The translations under genes were made by a program, and so were the position numbers. From a virus: DNA of 45,165 bases. The stretch spans positions 1 through 45,165 of the IMG/VR virus record IMGVR_UViG_3300037126_000044, one strand, 5' to 3'. Positions 6,228 through 37,800 of this stretch are shown piece after piece. Position 1 is the first letter of the stretch. Each line of letters starts with the position of its first letter. The notes beneath the pieces are model-generated. The model was not told the origin of the DNA. It saw only the letters and a program-made list of their open reading frames with translations, and ran no database searches.

Positions 6228-6539
6228 ATGCCGATTGACAAGAGACAGCGTGCGGTAGACGCTCTGACGAAGAAAATCAAAGCTGGGAAGCGACTCAGCG
6301 AGAAGGACGTCAGAGAAACTCTATATCTTGCCCGTGACTACGCCCTGCTTTATATGGCGACGGAACTCGTTTCGGGTAAGATCATCGAGAAAGCTCGCGT
6401 CCGAGTTTACAACGCTCTGCAGAATGCCGTGGAACGTCACGAGATCATGCATCCGGCTGAACGCAATGCTGAGCCGATCACCATCGGTTACGATCTGGAG
6501 CTACCCGTCAGAGGCGACAGCGAGGAAATAGAGGCATAA
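6228..6539 (+). CDS. candidate small terminase subunit (103 aa), assigned by position only
   Basis: AAGGAAG upstream of ATG 6228. It sits immediately upstream of TerL. Helical, basic N-terminus. Confidence 0.4.
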   Translation: MPIDKRQRAVDALTKKIKAGKRLSEKDVRETLYLARDYALLYMATELVSGKIIEKARVRVYNALQNAVERHEIMHPAERNAEPITIGYDLELPVRGDSEEIEA

Positions 6540-29813: not shown

Positions 29814-30344
29814 TTAATTCAAAATGGAATACTTCCGAATGATATCCTTGTCGGCATCTGTATATGCCGTTGATATTTCATCTTCCAGCCCGAGGACAAA
29901 ATGAAGCGGGCTATAGAATACATCATCTGGATTGTCAGAATGCTCGTCTTCGCCGGCGCCCATCAGATGAATGAGTTCGTGCATCATGACGCGCTGGAAC
30001 GCCTCGATACCAAACTCTTCGGTTGTCAGATCGCTTCGGACGGCAATATCACCGGCGTGATACCAGCCGACGTGATCACCGTAATCGAATCCGGATGCAG
30101 TCTCATCGTCTGAGATGCACATGACGAGGTGGCCGCCGCCAACTTCAGACACCGTCTCATAATCGACCGACTTACTTCCGGTGATTATGGCATGCTCGTA
30201 TCCGAGAACCACATTCAGCGCCTCGAAGGCTTTCATCGCTGCCCATCTTTCATCAGATGAGCAGTTTTTGTCGATGTGGAACTCGATTGGTTCCACACAG
30301 CCCAAAAAAGTCAAAGCACAGATGATTACAAATATTGTTTTCAT
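29814..30344 (-). CDS. lipoprotein-type zinc metallopeptidase (HExxH)
   Basis: MKTIFVIICALTFLGC resembles a signal peptide plus lipobox. HELIHLMGAGEDEH is a zincin motif. AAAGGAG lies 7 nt upstream of the ATG. Confidence 0.65.
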   Translation of the reverse strand: MKTIFVIICALTFLGCVEPIEFHIDKNCSSDERWAAMKAFEALNVVLGYEHAIITGSKSVDYETVSEVGGGHLVMCISDDETASGFDYGDHVGWYHAGDIAVRSDLTTEEFGIEAFQRVMMHELIHLMGAGEDEHSDNPDDVFYSPLHFVLGLEDEISTAYTDADKDIIRKYSILN

Positions 30345-30384
30345 TGTTTTCTCCTTTAATTATAGAATAATCATGGATTGATAA

Positions 30385-30633
30385 ATGACAACTGAACAGA
30401 TTAACAGGATTGAAAAAAAACTCGAAAAAATAGACGATATTCTTGCGTCGACCTCCAAGATAGAAGAGCACCTTAGGCATGTTCCAACGAAGTCTGATAT
30501 GTTGTTGGCTATCAAAAGCCACTGGGATCAATGCTCAGCAAAGAGGACTGCCAAGACTCGATGGATACTTGGGATTCTGCTTGGTGTATCGACTATTGTA
30601 TTGGGCGTATTCGAGATTATTCATTTATTTTAA
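30385..30633 (+). CDS. tail-anchored membrane protein (82 aa): coiled-coil N-terminus, C-terminal TM helix
   Basis: WILGILLGVSTIVLGVFEIIHLF at the C-terminus. No clear SD. It is the lone + gene inside the minus cassette. Confidence 0.45.
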   Translation: MTTEQINRIEKKLEKIDDILASTSKIEEHLRHVPTKSDMLLAIKSHWDQCSAKRTAKTRWILGILLGVSTIVLGVFEIIHLF

Positions 30634-30894
30634 TTGAGATATTCTTTGCAACATAGCTGTAACCCCTATGGATCCAATGCAGATCCAATCAGGCTTTCCA
30701 CACGTTACTTCGGATTCAAAATCCAGACATCCATTCTTCCCAATCACGGCGATATTGTACACCTGACTGCCATCTCTAAGAGTAACTGAGGCTCCGTATC
30801 CGTTCGGAAAACTGAATCGCCATTTGCGTCGTTGTTCTTCTCCAAACTGATCTAGCACTTCGTGTCTTTCATAATTGAACCCAAACTGTTTCAT
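30625..30894 (-). CDS. conserved-looking small phage protein (89 aa)
   Basis: ATGA coupling to the upstream gene. The FPNGYGASV...YNIAVIG... pattern recalls a widespread phage small-protein family (from memory). Confidence 0.6.
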   Translation of the reverse strand: MKQFGFNYERHEVLDQFGEEQRRKWRFSFPNGYGASVTLRDGSQVYNIAVIGKNGCLDFESEVTCGKPDWICIGSIGVTAMLQRISQLK

Positions 30895-31073
30895 TTTCTG
30901 CCTCTACCACATTCCAAGAGTCGGATTATGGCATGGATACTCGGTTTCCCGAGAGGAGCATCGTCAGCTCTTCTGTCGCGCTCTGATGGATGTCTTTCGA
31001 TCCATCCCGTCTCGATTACTAGCGGGTCACGTTTCTCTACATGAATACTGTATTGTGTTTTCGTTTTTTCCAT
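30891..31073 (-). CDS. small protein (60 aa), paralog of 32804..32971
   Basis: AAGGAG 6 nt upstream of the ATG. Shared motif TQYSI-EKR-PLVIETG. Differences from the paralog in that block are mostly synonymous. Confidence 0.65.
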   Translation of the reverse strand: MEKTKTQYSIHVEKRDPLVIETGWIERHPSERDRRADDAPLGKPSIHAIIRLLECGRGRK

Positions 31074-31074
31074 T

Positions 31075-31575
31075 TCATACTCCTTTTCTGGCCGAATCGG
31101 CCTCCACCAACTCCGCCAGTACAAGGCATGCCTTGTTTTCCCACGGAGGGAGGCCTGGACTGTCAATTCTAGCAGCTTTTTGGTATTTTTCATGCTCTCG
31201 CAACCACTTAGCTTGAGATACCACAGCATGTCGGAAAGCCGCATGCCATCCCCTTGGCCCAAAGTGGAGTTGAGTCAAATGCGGACTCATCCAGGCAATC
31301 AACTTTCGGGCCCAGGACTCCGAGTCGTCTTCGCTGGCGCATGACTCAATCAACATATCGTAGCATAAAAATGCACAATCCAATTTACAAGATGAATCTG
31401 AAAGAAGTTCTTCTTTCACCGCCTCTCGTAGTGGGTTTAAAATTTGCTCTCTGGACAATTGCCAAGCCCAACCCGATGGGTCCTCCTTCAGACAATCCAC
31501 GACACGCTGTTGTTTTTCATTCAAATCCATCAGCGACGGCCCTCCGGCCATCACTTGATCTAAGAATTCTCCCAT
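31075..31575 (-). CDS. hypothetical protein (166 aa)
   Basis: Start taken at the ATG preceded by AAAGGAGT, just after the truncated repeat element. The longer 200-aa ORF reads through that element. Confidence 0.6.
   Translation of the reverse strand: MGEFLDQVMAGGPSLMDLNEKQQRVVDCLKEDPSGWAWQLSREQILNPLREAVKEELLSDSSCKLDCAFLCYDMLIESCASEDDSESWARKLIAWMSPHLTQLHFGPRGWHAAFRHAVVSQAKWLREHEKYQKAARIDSPGLPPWENKACLVLAELVEADSARKGV
31090..31107 (-). repeat. Truncated copy of the element, embedded in the 3' end of 31075..31575
   Basis: ggccgaatcggcctccac matches the first 18 nt of R1 and R2. Sits immediately upstream of the SD of 30891..31073. Confidence 0.7.
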
Positions 31576-31593
31576 CTTTACACTCCTTTGCTT

Positions 31594-31608
31594 GGCCGAT
31601 AATCGGCC
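31594..31608 (-). repeat. Truncated copy of the element (small hairpin plus RBS flank only)
   Basis: ggccgataatcggcc, with the flank ctcctttgcttggccga shared with R2. Sits immediately upstream of the start of 31075..31575. Confidence 0.7.
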
Positions 31609-31609
31609 A

Positions 31610-31792
31610 CTATATGTTTTCTTCGGCGACGTAGATTCGGACGCCATCGCAATCCTCCACCCAGCCCCATGCTCCATTCTTGATTGCTGCCGGCGTAAGG
31701 CCGGCCTCGATAATCATTTTGTCACGAGCATCCTCAATCGAGGATGCCTGAATTATCCCGCTTTCTCCGTCTGTCTTATAGAAAAAATCCAT
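31610..31792 (-). CDS. small acidic protein (60 aa)
   Basis: AAAGGAGT 6 nt upstream of the ATG. Confidence 0.6.
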   Translation of the reverse strand: MDFFYKTDGESGIIQASSIEDARDKMIIEAGLTPAAIKNGAWGWVEDCDGVRIYVAEENI

Positions 31793-31796
31793 TTTC

Positions 31797-32051
31797 TTAC
31801 TCCTTTCTGCCCATAGTATCGATATCTAGCGGATAGCAAGATACTTCCCATGTCGCGAGACTTTCTGGAGTCCCGCTTGTAATCAATTTCGCCCCTATTG
31901 CCGGGGCATATCCACTGACGCCCCTGTTGTCCCAAGAAGTATCTGTGAATCGGATTATATCTCCATTCGGAGACGGTCGAAACTTGTTTTCATTTTTATC
32001 GTTTTGTACGATAAAGCCAGTCGTTGCTTTGGTCCCTGTTCTGATCTTCAT
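31797..32051 (-). CDS. hypothetical protein (84 aa)
   Basis: Start taken at ATG 32051, downstream of repeat copy R1. The 142-aa ORF in the track reads through the repeat. Confidence 0.55.
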   Translation of the reverse strand: MKIRTGTKATTGFIVQNDKNENKFRPSPNGDIIRFTDTSWDNRGVSGYAPAIGAKLITSGTPESLATWEVSCYPLDIDTMGRKE

Positions 32052-32071
32052 CTTTCTTCTACTTCTTTTCC

Positions 32072-32126
32072 GGCCGAATCGGCCTCCACTCCCGCCCGCC
32101 ATGACTGACGGGCAGGGTGGGGGTCG
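32072..32126 (-). repeat. Intercistronic GC-rich double-hairpin element, copy R1
   Basis: 55/55 identical to R2. Lies between the stop of 32128..32496 and the start of 31797..32051. Confidence 0.9.
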
Positions 32127-32127
32127 A

Positions 32128-32496
32128 TTACAATCCTCTACGCTTAATTTCTTCTTTGCAGTATCGGTTTTCTGTTTCCCACGATACATGCCAATATAGA
32201 CAATTTTCGTCACCGAGCCACCCATTACGGATGGCTTTGTCTACGGCATCTCGCCACCAGTCTCTCTCGGCGCGATGATGCGCCTCGATTGATGATGATA
32301 TTCCTATACAATCACCACCGTGTATGGCACATTCGCAAGGATCATGATCTTCCCTCCATGCTTTAGAGGACTCAACGCCATCGAGCAACTCTCGACAGCC
32401 TGGTTCGTCGACCCAATAAGGTCGACACGAGCATCGTCGGTCATCTCTCCCGTGATGGTGAACGGGACACCCGTATCTATTGACACAATAATGCAT
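32128..32496 (-). CDS. Cys/His-rich protein (122 aa)
   Basis: AAAGGAGT 6 nt upstream of the ATG. Contains many C and H residues (CVNRYGCPVHHH, CSC, CEC). Confidence 0.65.
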   Translation of the reverse strand: MHYCVNRYGCPVHHHGRDDRRCSCRPYWVDEPGCRELLDGVESSKAWREDHDPCECAIHGGDCIGISSSIEAHHRAERDWWRDAVDKAIRNGWLGDENCLYWHVSWETENRYCKEEIKRRGL

Positions 32497-32513
32497 CTTC
32501 TACTCCTTTGCTT

Positions 32514-32568
32514 GGCCGAATCGGCCTCCACTCCCGCCCGCCATGACTGACGGGCAGGGTGGGGGTCG
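32514..32568 (-). repeat. Intercistronic GC-rich double-hairpin element, copy R2
   Basis: Plus strand reads ggccgaatcggcctccactcccgcccgccatgactgacgggcagggtgggggtcg. Lies between the stop of 32571..32738 and the start of 32128..32496. Confidence 0.9.
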
Positions 32569-32570
32569 GT

Positions 32571-32738
32571 TCAATCTGCAACGTAAATCAAAGTCGGGTC
32601 TTCTGAGGCGATCTCCTCGGCATCATCGAGAGAGATGTCCCGGCGTGCGTCCTCGGTAGGGTCTGCGTATTTGCAGAGCTTGGCTTCTGGATTTGCTCGC
32701 TTGAATTCGATGGCTTCGTGTCCCGTCAAAGGTTTCAT
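32571..32738 (-). CDS. small acidic protein (55 aa; below the ORF-track cutoff)
   Basis: Hand-translated: MKPLTGHEAIEFKRANPEAKLCKYADPTEDARRDISLDDAEEIASEDPTLIYVAD. AAAAGGAGT lies 5 nt upstream of the ATG. Confidence 0.55.
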   Translation of the reverse strand: MKPLTGHEAIEFKRANPEAKLCKYADPTEDARRDISLDDAEEIASEDPTLIYVAD

Positions 32739-32803
32739 TTTTTACTCCTTTTTTGTTGTGTCCTTATATCTATAGTTTAAGGCTCAAATTTGACAGTGCA
32801 ATT

Positions 32804-32971
32804 TTATTTTCGTCCGCTGTTTAGAATATTCAAGATAGTCAAAATATTTGGACTGTTCGGTGCAACGTCGAATGGTCTTTTTTTTGGACCGTCGTCTTTC
32901 GACGGACCCGTCTCGATTACCAATGGCTCGCGTTTCTCTATTATTGAATATTGCGTATTTATCTTTTTCAT
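32804..32971 (-). CDS. small protein (55 aa), paralog of 30891..31073
   Basis: Start taken at the ATG after repeat copy R3 (AAGGAT 6 nt upstream); encodes MKKINTQYSIIEKREPLVIETG... Confidence 0.6.
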   Translation of the reverse strand: MKKINTQYSIIEKREPLVIETGPSKDDGPKKRPFDVAPNSPNILTILNILNSGRK

Positions 32972-32988
32972 CTTATAATCCTTGTCTT

Positions 32989-33043
32989 GGCCGAATCGGC
33001 CGCCACTTCCACCCGCCATGACTGACGGGCAGGGTGGGGGTCG
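32989..33043 (-). repeat. Intercistronic GC-rich double-hairpin element, copy R3
   Basis: 52/55 identical to R1 and R2. Lies between the stop of 33052..33303 and the start of 32804..32971. Confidence 0.9.
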
Positions 33044-33051
33044 ATTAAATT

Positions 33052-33303
33052 TCAGTCAACAAATTTAATCAGTGTGGCATGTACGACTTGTATACAGCCA
33101 TCATCAAGCTCTAGGATCCCAACTGGATATTGACCACCATCACCATCGCTATCACTAGACCAACAATGGAATTTGGCATCTATAACGATTCTATTATACT
33201 CATAATTGCCAACACTGTTACACATTCGGACACGTTTTGTGTATACACAAGATCGCAAGTTTTCATTTACTCTTTTAGTCTTTGTGGCCATTGTTGCTCT
33301 CAT
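33052..33303 (-). CDS. small protein (83 aa), inverted paralog of 33613..33840
   Basis: Shares LRSCVYTKRVRM, FHCWS, DGCIQVVHATLIKFVD with LRPCTFKKKVRI, FHRWS, DGSVELVYAESVKFID. It is the first gene of the leftward cassette. Confidence 0.65.
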   Translation of the reverse strand: MRATMATKTKRVNENLRSCVYTKRVRMCNSVGNYEYNRIVIDAKFHCWSSDSDGDGGQYPVGILELDDGCIQVVHATLIKFVD

Positions 33304-33408
33304 TTTTCACTGCTTTGTTACAGCTTATATCTATATTGTGTATCCTGGATTTCTCGGCGCAAGTGCTTTTTTGTATTTTTCTCATATTACAATTTTATAG
33401 TATTAAAT

Positions 33409-33445
33409 ATTTCACAAATGAAATGTACTGTTTCACAAATGAAAT
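33409..33445. promoter_or_regulatory. Two palindromic operator-like sites 21 bp apart in the divergent control region
   Basis: ATTTCACAAATGAAAT at 33409-33424 (6-4-6 perfect palindrome) and GTTTCACAAATGAAAT at 33430-33445. The 15-nt core is identical. Confidence 0.6.
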
Positions 33446-33542
33446 ACAATGAATTCAGTACTATGAACAAAATATAGTTATTTCAGTCACTTATATCTTG
33501 TCATTAAATTTGCAGTGTGACAACAGAGGCATATCCCTGCTT

Positions 33543-33587
33543 ATCCTGCCCGAGATTATACTCCTTGCTCGGGCAGGATTCTTTTTT
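33543..33587 (+). terminator. Intrinsic terminator or attenuator in the leader of the rightward early operon
   Basis: Perfect 12-bp stem atcctgcccgag / ctcgggcaggat with a 13-nt loop, followed by tctttttt. It ends 2 nt before the first AAGGAGTA repeat (33590), 25 nt before ATG 33613. Confidence 0.65.
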
Positions 33588-33612
33588 ATAAGGAGTATCA
33601 AGGAGTAAAAAA

Positions 33613-33840
33613 ATGAGTAAAAAAGAAGAATTGCGTCCGTGTACATTTAAGAAAAAAGTGCGGATTGATGGAGGAGTCTGGCCCGATAACATTAAAGAGA
33701 TCCAGATCAAGGGTCTCTTTCATCGCTGGAGTCAAGAGTCAGAGTCATCTAATGGAGATATATCTACTGTGGCGGTGATCGAATGCATGGACGGCTCAGT
33801 GGAGCTTGTCTATGCCGAGAGTGTCAAATTTATTGATTAA
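33613..33840 (+). CDS. small protein (75 aa), inverted paralog of 33052..33303
   Basis: AAGGAGTA 5 nt upstream of the ATG; first gene of the rightward operon. Confidence 0.7.
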   Translation: MSKKEELRPCTFKKKVRIDGGVWPDNIKEIQIKGLFHRWSQESESSNGDISTVAVIECMDGSVELVYAESVKFID

Positions 33841-33852
33841 CAAGGAGTGAAA

Positions 33853-34650
33853 ATGAATAAATACAATGAAATTGAAGCGCTAAACTGGAGTACGCTGAAA
33901 CAGATGTCGATCTCGCCGGCATTCGCAAAGCACCAGGCCGACCATCCCGAAGAAGCGAAAGACACGGACTCATTTCGCCTCGGGCGGGCAGTACACTGTG
34001 CGGTGTTGGAGCCGGAAAGGTTTCTGGATGAGTACATCGTGCAACCCGACTTCGGAAACATGCGCACAAAGGCCGCCAGGGAAGCCAGAGATAGCTGGCT
34101 GGATTGCTTACTCAAGGATGTCGAGGTTATCAGTGGTGAAGAGTTCGAGACGGCGACGAGGGCCGCAACAGCGGTACATGCACATGAGCACGCCATGGAA
34201 TTACTGCGCGGTGCAAGAACAGAACACATCGTCCAATGGACGCATCCTGGAACAGGCATCAAATGCAAGGGACGGCTGGACGCCATTACCGACAGGGTTG
34301 TGGACCTGAAGACAACTCGGCGTCCGATAGTGCGTGATATCCTGCGGGATGCCGCGAACTATGACTACCACGGCCAACTCGCATGGTACCACGACGCAGC
34401 AGTTCTAGCCGGGCTGATCGATGGACACGTGCTCCCGGCAATGATCGCCATACATGTTCCAAAGGGAAGCTCCTTCGTTGACATCGCCGTTTTCAGTACG
34501 GGGTATGCCCCCGAGACGATTGAAGCCGGGCGCGCATTATACGAAAACCTGATCTCACAATACGCGGGATGTCAATCAACAGGGTGGTGGCCAGGCATGG
34601 CGCCAGAGGTAATTCCATTTGAGTTGCCAGGATGGAAGCTGGAGGGTTAG
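33853..34650 (+). CDS. PD-(D/E)XK exonuclease (RecE/DUF3799-like recombination exonuclease)
   Basis: FRLGRAVHCAVLEPERF and GRLDAITDRVVDLKTT motifs. AAGGAG 5 nt upstream of ATG 33853. Paired with an annealing protein. Confidence 0.65.
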   Translation: MNKYNEIEALNWSTLKQMSISPAFAKHQADHPEEAKDTDSFRLGRAVHCAVLEPERFLDEYIVQPDFGNMRTKAAREARDSWLDCLLKDVEVISGEEFETATRAATAVHAHEHAMELLRGARTEHIVQWTHPGTGIKCKGRLDAITDRVVDLKTTRRPIVRDILRDAANYDYHGQLAWYHDAAVLAGLIDGHVLPAMIAIHVPKGSSFVDIAVFSTGYAPETIEAGRALYENLISQYAGCQSTGWWPGMAPEVIPFELPGWKLEG

Positions 34651-34854
34651 ATGGAACGAAAAAGGAATATCATGACGGCACCAATGGTTGCGCGCATCTG
34701 TGAGTGCGATCTGAAAACAATCCACAATTGGGTGAACAGCGGGAAGATGAATGCCTTCCGGACACCGGGCAGACATCTCCGGTTTACCAAGATGGATGTC
34801 ATTTCTTTCTTGCGAAAATACGGCTTCGTCGTGCCCGGGGAGTTGCTGAAATGA
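34651..34854 (+). CDS. excisionase/MerR-type HTH DNA-binding protein (67 aa)
   Basis: MVARICECDLKTIHNWVNSGKMNAFRTPGRHLRFTKMDVISFL is the HTH_17-type pattern. Confidence 0.6.
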   Translation: MERKRNIMTAPMVARICECDLKTIHNWVNSGKMNAFRTPGRHLRFTKMDVISFLRKYGFVVPGELLK

Positions 34855-35783
34855 CTGACTCACACGCGATAACCACGACGGCGCCGGCACAGATTGAGCA
34901 ACAAACGAAAATGCATCCGCTGGTCGAGCTGGCCATGAGTGGTGGACAGGAACTGGATACCGAGAAGCTGAGGGAGCTTATGGCGCTCCAAAGGGAGTGG
35001 CAAGCAGACCACGCGAAGCAGGCGTACACGCGATCGATAACGAATCTGAAGAATGAGATGCCTTCTGTAATTGAAAAAGATGGGATGGCGTCATTTGGTA
35101 CAGGAGAGAATAAGCCAAAATACAGATTCACTACACTCGCCAGGGCAATGGATGTGGTGACACCATGTCTTTCGCGAAACGGGCTTTCCATATCGTGGAG
35201 GACAACCAATGACGGAGACGGTGTGTCCGTCACTTGCCGTATTACCCATGCCGATGGTCACCATGAAGAAACAACTCTATCCGGGCCAATCGACAAAAGC
35301 GGCGGCAAGAATGCCATACAGGCTGTCGGCTCAACGGTAACTTATCTGCAGCGCTATACGGCACTTGCCCTGCTCGGCATCGCCACCGCCGACATGAAAG
35401 AACCACATGGATCGAAAGACGACAAAGTTGACGCCGCGAAAAACCTCCAGGCCGTCGCCACACTCAAGCAGTGCGGCGTGACATTGGAGCAGGCGTGCAA
35501 CCATATTGGCAAGGACGTGCGCCAATGGACATTGTCGGATCTGGAAAAGCTCAGAGAGCTCGTGAGAGCCAACCGGCAGCAACCAACCGAAGAATCACAT
35601 GACGCCAAAAACGAAGAGGCAACCGAAATAGAACAGCTTCGTGCCGAGGTGATCGACAAGGCCCGCGAGAAATGGGGCGACAATGGAATGATCAAGCTTG
35701 GTCAACTCCTGCGGTCAAATGGGACAATGATTTCCGATGCCGGCCTGGATGCCTTGAACTGGGCACTGGAGGAAATGAGATGA
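34851..35783 (+). CDS. ERF-family single-strand annealing protein
   Basis: ATGA coupling at 34851. KYRFTTLARAMDVVTPCLSRNGL and GSTVTYLQRYTALALLGI are ERF-type motifs (from memory). Confidence 0.65.
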   Translation: MTDSHAITTTAPAQIEQQTKMHPLVELAMSGGQELDTEKLRELMALQREWQADHAKQAYTRSITNLKNEMPSVIEKDGMASFGTGENKPKYRFTTLARAMDVVTPCLSRNGLSISWRTTNDGDGVSVTCRITHADGHHEETTLSGPIDKSGGKNAIQAVGSTVTYLQRYTALALLGIATADMKEPHGSKDDKVDAAKNLQAVATLKQCGVTLEQACNHIGKDVRQWTLSDLEKLRELVRANRQQPTEESHDAKNEEATEIEQLRAEVIDKAREKWGDNGMIKLGQLLRSNGTMISDAGLDALNWALEEMR

Positions 35784-36907: not shown

Positions 36908-37444
36908 ATGAAAGTAAGTTGTGAATTTGAATTGGACTGGGTCAATGAAGACGAAACCATCGATAGTGAGATTGAGAAACGACTTGTTCGCGCGGTAATT
37001 GATAAGATGCCCAAAAGCATAATGGAGGGCATCGAAAAAAAAGCATCTGATCTGATGTCCGATAAGGTCGATAGCACAATCGACACAATACTTGATCGCT
37101 TCATGAATCGAGAAGTGATGGTGACGGACCGATGGGGGGATATTCAAGAGAAATACGAATCCGTCAACGAACTATTGAAATCAAAGTTCGATTCCTTCGT
37201 TTCACAGCCAGTCGACAAAAATGGAAATCCAGCTAAGGGGTGTTCGTACGGCAAAGTGTACACACGAATTGAGCATCTGATCGACGCGAGAATACAAGAT
37301 AAGGCCAGCAGGTTTACAAAGAACATACTTGACGGAGTTGAGGCACAGCTGAAACAGCACTTGAATGAACAGATCAAAAAAAGCACCGAGGATGCATTCA
37401 AGAAAGCGATGAATCTGGATGAGATCCTGTCAGGAAATAAATAA
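36908..37444 (+). CDS. hypothetical protein (178 aa)
   Basis: AAGGGAG upstream of the ATG. Confidence 0.6.
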   Translation: MKVSCEFELDWVNEDETIDSEIEKRLVRAVIDKMPKSIMEGIEKKASDLMSDKVDSTIDTILDRFMNREVMVTDRWGDIQEKYESVNELLKSKFDSFVSQPVDKNGNPAKGCSYGKVYTRIEHLIDARIQDKASRFTKNILDGVEAQLKQHLNEQIKKSTEDAFKKAMNLDEILSGNK

Positions 37445-37521
37445 CCGCGAAACCGGCTCAGGCCGGTCGTTACGGGGTGGCGCCCATGACCTGATGAGCA
37501 GCTAGGGGACGGGAAATTTAA

Positions 37522-37800
37522 ATGATCGAACGAACGCATACAACAGAAGAAGATAATTGCAAAAGATTATGGTATTCTGTTTTGCTCCAAGCGATCAAAG
37601 ATATAGAAGCACTACAAAGAAATAAATTACCAATTGCATCTAAAACCAAAGTTTTATTTTATAGAGAATTACGATATTTTTTTTCTGAGAGATGCGAGGA
37701 ACTTGATAACATATGTGAAATTATAGAAATTGACGTTGGACGAGTCAGGAGAAAAGCAAATATCATGCTTGATAATGTTGACATGAAACAGAAGTTATAA
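37522..37800 (+). CDS. hypothetical protein (92 aa)
   Basis: GGGGACGGGAAA upstream of the ATG. Confidence 0.55.
   Translation: MIERTHTTEEDNCKRLWYSVLLQAIKDIEALQRNKLPIASKTKVLFYRELRYFFSERCEELDNICEIIEIDVGRVRRKANIMLDNVDMKQKL

Follow-up and report, generated by a model that had tools for sequence, protein, structure and literature searches.

Introduction

Integron attC sites carry two core sites, R'' (RYYYAAC) and R' (GTTRRRY), and are recombined by the tyrosine recombinase IntI at one fixed position. Polycistronic mRNA of phage T7 reportedly carries repeated intercistronic hairpins of ~20 bp with a bulge or internal loop, which, in work credited to Dunn and Studier, are said to be cut by RNase III, the cut hairpin remaining at the 3' end and stabilising the upstream message; we know of no report of these sites as cassette-exchange points. 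What defines the PeSL (promoter-early stem-loop) motifs of T4-type phages is a strong promoter of the sigma-70 type, preceded by AT-rich sequence (Arbiol et al. 2010, PMC2839356; Comeau et al. 2014, PMC4122927). In Cluster K mycobacteriophages (Pope et al. 2011), the 13-bp SAS (start-associated sequence), GGGATAGGAGCCC, lies 3–8 bp before start codons, and the ESAS consists of imperfect 17-bp inverted repeats with a 4–13-bp spacer, immediately upstream of the motif that contains the ribosome-binding site (RBS); both accompany a subset of non-structural genes in one orientation, and their function is unknown but thought to affect expression (PMC3203893). Here we describe a 55-nt GC-rich element, termed E, that recurs in a leftward operon of small ORFan genes (g1–g9) in IMG/VR record IMGVR_UViG_3300037126_000044, a 45,165-nt stretch of tailed-phage DNA that was analysed at its full length (the window).

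We suggest, with a probability of roughly 0.6, that E is the core of a promoter-less intercistronic linker, composed of hairpin and RBS, in polycistronic mRNA, and that this linker also serves as a crossover point for homologous recombination. Its hairpin has a modelled length and a bulge that would be compatible with the T7 RNase III sites, to which it shows no sequence similarity; an earlier note on this DNA, made from the letters alone, had instead drawn on PeSL, REP and attC elements for comparison.

Results

Copies of E and their register to the flanking genes

The window contains three full copies of E and two 3' remnants, all on the minus strand, which is the orientation of the genes. 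The copies, and the spacers that join the full ones to the following genes, are:

32072–32126, minus strand: copy A, between g4 and g5, starting 1 nt past the g4 stop codon
32514–32568, minus strand: copy B, between g3 and g4, starting 2 nt past the g3 stop codon; 83.7 bits with covariance model R1 (see below)
32989–33043, minus strand: copy C, between g1 and g2; 77 bits with model R1
31594–31608, minus strand: small-hairpin-only variant GGCCGATTATCGGCC, between g6 and g7, without the long hairpin
31090–31107, minus strand: 3' remnant GTGGAGGCCGATTCGGCC, inside the last 11 codons of g7
32972–32988, minus strand: A-rich spacer and RBS, joining copy C to the g2 start
32497–32513, minus strand: A-rich spacer with an AAAGGAG RBS, joining copy B to the g4 start
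32052–32071, minus strand: A-rich spacer with a weak RBS, joining copy A to the g5 start

Copies A and B are identical at 55 of 55 positions and copy C differs from both at 3, so that the coordinates and identities given in the earlier note hold. That note had also placed the full copies 1–8 nt past a stop codon, which is accurate: copy C, 8 nt past its stop, nevertheless keeps the usual TAAT directly before CGACC. Both of its truncated copies exist, but the one at 31090–31107 does not lie at a gene junction, as had been claimed, since it sits in the C-terminal codons of g7. The variant at 31594–31608 is also found in three related contigs (L189, L190 and L191), with single-base changes that weaken pairing.

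The copies of E are 67–76% GC. A 35-nt hairpin core occurs three times in the window and in none of 100 shuffles, and GGCCGAATCGGCC with at most 2 mismatches gives 11 matches against 1.05 expected. A scan of the 45 kb with model R1 yielded no further copy, leaving E in one operon and one orientation only.

Carriers of E were recruited by exact and gapped pattern scans and through homologues of g3 and g7. They comprise four IMG/VR contigs (L002, L004/L190, L005/L191 and L006/L189) and the metagenome/Logan contigs L018, L099, L192–L196 and L201–L206. Model R1, built from 13 copies, gave 35–84 bits to true sense copies, 22–29 bits to two degraded copies and 14–38 bits to antisense sequences, and rejected as chance ~180 pattern-matching loci. 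Set against the antisense strand at 14–38 bits, sense hits reached 60–84 bits. Gapped pattern scans of metagenome and genome collections gave ~170 loci, and by this model nearly all of them are chance matches at or below 26 bits. Among 185,579 representative cellular genomes there was no true copy, all pattern loci being rejected by the model. In total, ~23 distinct full copies were found in at least 10 metagenomic phage contigs, all in gene orientation, and homologues of g3 in the carrier contigs are followed by a full E.

Across the ~23 copies, the register of E to the stop and start codons is fixed. The stop codon of the upstream open reading frame (ORF) lies 1–3 nt before CGACC, inside a conserved AAY; downstream of E the sequence reads A(G/A)AAAAGGAG and a further 5–8 nt, with the ATG 15–22 nt past E. 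The linker thus consists of the stop codon, 1–3 nt, a long GC hairpin, one base, a GGCCG/CGGCC hairpin, an A-rich AAGGAG RBS and the ATG. The 3' end of E is GGCCGATTCGGCC followed by AGAAAAGGAG, and its 5' flank is variable coding sequence ending in AAY. Degenerate junctions were also seen in three IMG/VR contigs (L207, 9206–9271; L209, 1423–1488; L208, 1581–1654), which keep an exact GGCCGATTCGGCC and AAGGAG next to a decayed long hairpin; the L208 junction has an 11-nt internal duplication as well.

A search of Rfam 15 returned nothing at the gathering threshold or by E-value, in line with the earlier failure to recognise a named family. The best sub-threshold match at the copies, CRISPR-DR9, reached 16.8 bits where 45 are needed (E = 3.8); a CRISPR-repeat mimic was rejected, as this match and one to a snoRNA both lie far below threshold.

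Conservation of the two predicted hairpins

RNAfold predicts a long hairpin of 15 pairs, a bulged A and 4 pairs with a GUCA tetraloop, followed by one base and a 5-bp GGCCG/CGGCC hairpin. The stem is therefore longer than the 12 bp with a 10-nt loop initially proposed, and covariation backs the extra upper pairs. Copies A and B fold at -38 kcal/mol (z = -4.46) and copy C at -29.5 kcal/mol; the loop of the long hairpin measures 4–6 nt among copies. One of the changes in copy C turns a G-C into a G-U pair, as had been pointed out before, but another breaks a C-G pair beside the bulge, and the third falls in the single-base linker.

Comparison of the copies indicates that selection maintains the long hairpin in the sense strand. 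Standard pairs occupy 96.1% of the paired cells in 13 copies and 90.5% in 23 copies, compared to 35–58% when the partners are slid against each other. Each upper-stem pair occurs in three to five pair types; the three pairs under the invariant loop-closing A-U, for example, are found as GC/CG/AU/UA/GU, as UG/CG/UA/AU and as CG/GC/UG. When no structure was imposed, RNAalifold recovered a 10-bp upper stem with four covarying pairs. In addition, the long helix contains 57 G-U versus 16 A-C cells, and 91.8% of its cells pair in the sense strand versus 79.8% in the antisense strand. Compensatory changes in homologues, the check that the earlier note had proposed, are thus present, and together with the sense-strand G-U bias they support a constraint on the long hairpin at the RNA level.

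The small GGCCG/CGGCC hairpin, described before as a mini-hairpin and likewise predicted by RNAfold, is conserved as a sequence and its pairing is a prediction without real covariation behind it: there is one compensatory change (AGCCG...CGGCU, in L002) and no strand bias. An alternative extended helix, AAUCGACC/GGCCGAUU, which would replace the small hairpin, appeared in some centroid folds only and is mismatched in the commoner AAC copies; it was rejected, and the compensatory change in L002 favours the small hairpin over it.

Conservation of sequence rather than structure, irrespective of strand, is also what an operator might display. The small palindrome GGCCGA-T-TCGGCC beside each RBS, acting as an RNA hairpin or as DNA, could allow a phage or host regulator to co-control all cassettes, and every truncated copy retains it, always 4–6 nt before the RBS. 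We consider this doubtful, given that no candidate binding protein was identified and that several carriers hold weakened versions (L191 GACTGATTCGACC and GGCCGATTGGCC variants); the sequence tools used do not separate an operator from a 5'-end stabiliser.

Tests for terminator, promoter and insulator function

Both hairpins lack a following U-tract on either strand; what comes after them is A-rich, and a scan of the sense strand for terminators detected none at the full copies. An intrinsic (Rho-independent) terminator was therefore rejected in spite of the GC hairpin. A promoter scan likewise returned no minus-strand promoter-like site at any copy, and the copies contain no AT-rich hexamer. 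Both results agree with the initial assessment of E as neither an intrinsic terminator nor an obvious sigma70 promoter.

A hairpin of this stability (-30 to -38 kcal/mol) right after a stop codon might still act as a transcription attenuator, each copy terminating in part so that expression steps down along the array. The stem-loop of the PeSLs, which would be the model for such an arrangement, cuts lacZ expression like a strong terminator (PMC2839356). However, besides the missing U-tract, no promoter lies downstream of any copy, so that three efficient terminators in series would silence g4–g9. The G-U bias and the covariation suit any role of an RNA hairpin and show no preference for this one, and we regard attenuation as unlikely.

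An insulator of the RBS was also tried and rejected. The predicted probability of an unpaired RBS was 0.73 with native E, 0.68 with E shuffled and 0.70 with E deleted.

Exchange, loss and fusion of genes at E

Alignments of the arrays indicate that crossovers, deletions and illegitimate fusions fall in or at the linker. The gene orders compared are:

Window: g3-E-g4-E-g5-g6
L190: g3-E-g4-E-g6
L189: g3-E-(unrelated 81 aa)-E-g5-g6
L191: g3-E-(79 aa)-E-(131 aa)

An all-against-all comparison of the cassette proteins, in which L018, L099 and L002 provided further cargo sets, showed that phages with no other relationship use this one linker to connect different ORFan genes; in L202, g7 precedes g6. 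The g4 protein is 100% identical in L190, and an unrelated gene of 79–81 aa lies between the same two copies of E in L189 and L191. When the window was aligned with L190, identity was ~65–75% in g3 but ~99.5% between the RBS that follows copy B and the point where copy A begins; beyond this point, the upper stem of copy A differs, g5 is missing and g6 is again 100% identical. As E flanks different cargo in other phages and identity breaks at E, the comparisons lend direct support to a role as recombination boundary. The earlier note had listed a boundary that shuffles cassettes among the possible roles and had named homologues flanking different cargo in related phages as a check; both are confirmed, with genes swapped, lost and reordered at E between phages. 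Its view that E is independently maintained at gene junctions is likewise borne out by homologues with compensatory changes and different cargo.

The fusion at the end of g7 illustrates a breakpoint within E. In relatives, g7 ends in ...GTGGAGGCGGAGACAATATGA, and the window switches at the microhomology GTGGAGGC into the 3' half of an E, an RBS and g8; homology of the window to L189–L191 ends at 31097. The remnant at 31090–31107 is a recombination scar. Elsewhere, g3 is followed only by a 12-nt 5' stub of E, CCGACCCACACC, with unrelated DNA beyond (L197–L200), one junction in L018 is an E collapsed between its two CGA triplets, and L002 and L099 carry E with internal deletions. The junction positions within E are scattered (about 3, 12, 20, 31 and 38–45), which fits homologous or microhomology recombination and not a site-specific enzyme. 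Moreover, the identity of copies A and B in the window, while their counterparts in L190 differ from each other, points to homogenisation within a genome.

The arrays occur in unrelated backbones: between the portal gene and a lambda-type GpA terminase gene in L192-type contigs, after the tail-fibre genes in L197-type contigs, and between the tail genes and the ERF module in the window. In L192 (5490–9817) and also in L193–L195, which are lambda-like, the array is inserted in opposite orientation between the portal-side genes and the gene for the GpA-type large terminase, an unusual accessory site. L198 (~6300–6370), L199 and L200 contain an insert of ~65 nt, absent from L197, that has the direct repeat AATGATTT on its two sides and contains a GGGGTTAACCCCCC/GGGGGGTTA palindrome; it has the look of a small mobile palindrome distinct from E.

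Two further explanations bear on these junctions. E could be a selfish palindrome, similar to MITE, REP or Correia elements, that inserts and spreads between genes, with any effect on RNA incidental. Its two ends make up an imperfect inverted repeat, a single long hairpin is predicted for the plus strand, two copies within one genome are identical, and the collapsed L018 junction resembles a site that is empty or from which E was excised, with the CGA triplet next to the long hairpin as its boundary; Correia elements are co-transcribed and bind RNase III (PMC2649163). However, the full copies share one orientation and one register to the stop and start codons, and neither the rest of the window nor the cellular genomes yielded E. 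There was no transposase, HUH protein or integrase among the ~40 window ORFs scanned with Pfam or PHROGs, and the scattered breakpoints define no fixed termini. Occurrence in both orientations and target-site duplication, which mark MITE, REP and Correia elements, were not observed apart from a possible CGA duplication at one site. We therefore judge selfish insertion to be rather unlikely.

The imperfect palindrome with a bulged base right after each cassette's stop codon, its conserved ends and variable centre, and the promoter-less array behind one promoter would also fit a site-specific recombination site like integron attC, folded as single-stranded DNA and cut by a dedicated recombinase. 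In contrast to attC, E contains no RYYYAAC/GTTRRRY core sites, no integrase was found in the same ORF scan, and the junctions lie at many positions instead of one cleavage point. An attC-like site is most improbable, and was rejected on the missing core sites and the scattered breakpoints.

The accessory operon and its surroundings

The genes of the leftward operon, a gap within it and the adjoining recombination genes are:

33052–33303, minus strand: g1, 83 aa, first gene of the leftward unit
32804–32971, minus strand: g2, 55 aa, paralogue of g8 (repeat D5)
32739–32803, minus strand: AT-rich gap without E, upstream of g3; it carries TATAGATATAAG, also present upstream of g1 (read from the sequence)
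32571–32738, minus strand: g3, 55 aa, conserved lead gene of the array, preceded by the AT-rich region
32128–32496, minus strand: g4, 122 aa, Cys/His-rich cargo with E on both sides
31797–32051, minus strand: g5, 84 aa, cargo; missing from L190
31610–31792, minus strand: g6, 60 aa
31075–31575, minus strand: g7, 166 aa; its last 6 codons derive from the fused E remnant and RBS
30891–31073, minus strand: g8, 60 aa, paralogue of g2; it came with the 3' half of an E
30625–30894, minus strand: g9
33847–35783, plus strand: recombination genes adjoining the array, encoding a PD-(D/E)XK nuclease (33847–34650; Pfam DUF3799/PDDEXK_1) and an ERF single-strand annealing protein (34704–35783; Pfam ERF)

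The full copies of E divide g1/g2, g3/g4 and g4/g5. Ten cassette proteins compared with Pfam and PHROGs gave essentially no matches. The paralogues g2 and g8 (MKKINTQYSIIEKREPLVIETG... and MEKTKTQYSIHVEKRDPLVIETG...) indicate that the array holds a duplicated cassette. TATAGATATAAG lies ~30 nt upstream of both the g1 and the g3 start, and the gap at 32739–32803 is probably an internal promoter, to judge from its sequence; the consensus promoter scan did not pick it up.

Proteins encoded in the window include terminase, tape-measure and baseplate proteins, the ERF annealing protein, the PD-(D/E)XK nuclease and replication proteins. Among 50,697 genomes of isolated phages, blastn with 30000–34000 and tblastn with the terminase gave no match. 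The host of the phage was not identified, and no host-borne copy of E was recovered.

Several observations concern the neighbouring sequence. The segment 33304–33612 is a divergent regulatory region with a perfect direct repeat, TTTCACAAATGAAAT, present twice at 33410–33445. The genes flanking it, 33052–33303 (minus strand, g1) and 33613–33840 (plus strand), both match phrog_11000 (function unknown) and are thus divergently transcribed paralogues. A strong hairpin at 33543–33590 (plus strand; CCTGCCCGAG...CTCGGGCAGG followed by TTCTTTTTT) lies shortly before the RBS of the first rightward gene (33613) and resembles a leader terminator or attenuator; the CCTGCCCG that it has in common with E explains a weak 10-bit match to the model there. 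At the end of the leftward region, 29814–30344 (minus strand) encodes a 176-aa protein with a lipoprotein-like N-terminus (LTFLGC) and a HELIH metalloprotease-like motif, for which Pfam and PHROGs gave no match.

In the rightward operon, a type II hammerhead ribozyme (RF02276; 50.2 bits, threshold 37) at 37445–37507 (plus strand) exactly occupies the gap between the stop codon of ORF 36908–37444 and the RBS and ATG of ORF 37522–37800. This slot, from stop codon to RBS, is equivalent to that of E, and the ribozyme in it offers a parallel in favour of the linker reading: the phage plausibly cuts its own mRNAs between cistrons.

Discussion

Based on its anatomy, we suggest that the long hairpin of E could protect the 3' end of the upstream cistron or be the place where this end is processed, either through an RNase III-like cut or by blocking exonucleases, while the small hairpin and the RBS may constitute a 5' module of the downstream cistron. 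Processing or protection of cistron ends in this manner is probable, and each gene would then form an expression unit of its own at any site of insertion. At the DNA level, the 55–75 nt of shared sequence would offer a substrate for homologous and microhomology recombination, and the exchange might plausibly be performed by the ERF annealing protein and the nuclease that the phage itself encodes beside the array. A role of this kind has been proposed for phage Rad52-like recombinases (PMC3945230). The outcome would be the swapping, loss and reordering of cassettes and the homogenisation of copies.

A number of points weigh against E as an expression and exchange linker. The processing or stabilisation step is one that we infer from sequence and predicted folds. 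The gain in RBS accessibility (0.73 versus 0.70) is too small to support an insulator effect, and some junctions work with the small hairpin alone or with a collapsed E and hence do not need the long hairpin. As the lower stem and the small hairpin hardly vary, covariation tells nothing about them either way, the small hairpin showing its single compensatory change and no strand bias. Finally, related sequences share ancestry, and shuffle controls therefore overstate significance.

A more radical alternative is that E is the signal for a dedicated machine, an RNA endonuclease or a hairpin-directed recombinase, which would make promoter-less ORFan cassettes portable among unrelated phages, in effect an 'integron' without IntI. 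We consider this quite improbable.

As a promoter-less linker that is also a point of exchange, E is a clear case in nature of what the modular theory of phage evolution proposed as 'linker sequences': a short, conserved module that lets small accessory genes be expressed and also exchanged. It does so across phages with different head, packaging and tail genes, as evidenced by cassettes that are 99.5–100% identical at the nucleotide level in otherwise dissimilar genomes. The covariance model of E also provides a practical marker of hypervariable accessory loci in uncultivated phages, the cargo of which is likely to include host-takeover or anti-defence genes. If the suggested role in processing or stability is true, the module would constitute a compact natural part for polycistronic constructs.

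The comparison with attC sites is loose, as is that with REP elements, both of which the earlier note had invoked, because their defining features are absent from E. With attC, E shares an array that is promoter-less behind one promoter and an imperfect palindrome with an extrahelical base after each stop codon; it differs in lacking core sites and in its scattered breakpoints, exchange being driven by homology rather than specific to a site.

The ESAS is matched in architecture only, namely by an inverted repeat (arms of 15+4 nt, loop of 4–6 nt in E) just before the RBS. E linkers do not contain GGGATAGGAGCCC and show no sequence homology to the SAS. In addition, ESAS have not been reported as recombination junctions, and E is also tied to the upstream stop codon.

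PeSLs come closest in behaviour, as the initial analogy had implied, although their defining promoter is missing in E. Both are composite motifs that reach from the stop codon of an ORFan to the Shine-Dalgarno sequence or start codon of the next gene and include a GC-rich stem-loop with G-T/G-U pairs; both cluster in a hyperplastic region, where homologous recombination at the motifs leads to indels and replacements among related phages (PMC2839356, PMC4122927). E differs in its second, small hairpin, in the fixed 1–3 nt to the stop codon and in its phages, which are of ~45–52 kb and not T4-like; there is no sequence similarity. Without the promoter that defines PeSLs, E is not a PeSL, and its cassettes depend on an upstream promoter, so that, unlike a series of PeSLs, the array resembles the cassette array of an integron in being driven from one end. 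E is thus novel as a linker of hairpin and RBS that lacks a promoter and builds integron-like arrays of ORFans in phages that are not T4-like.

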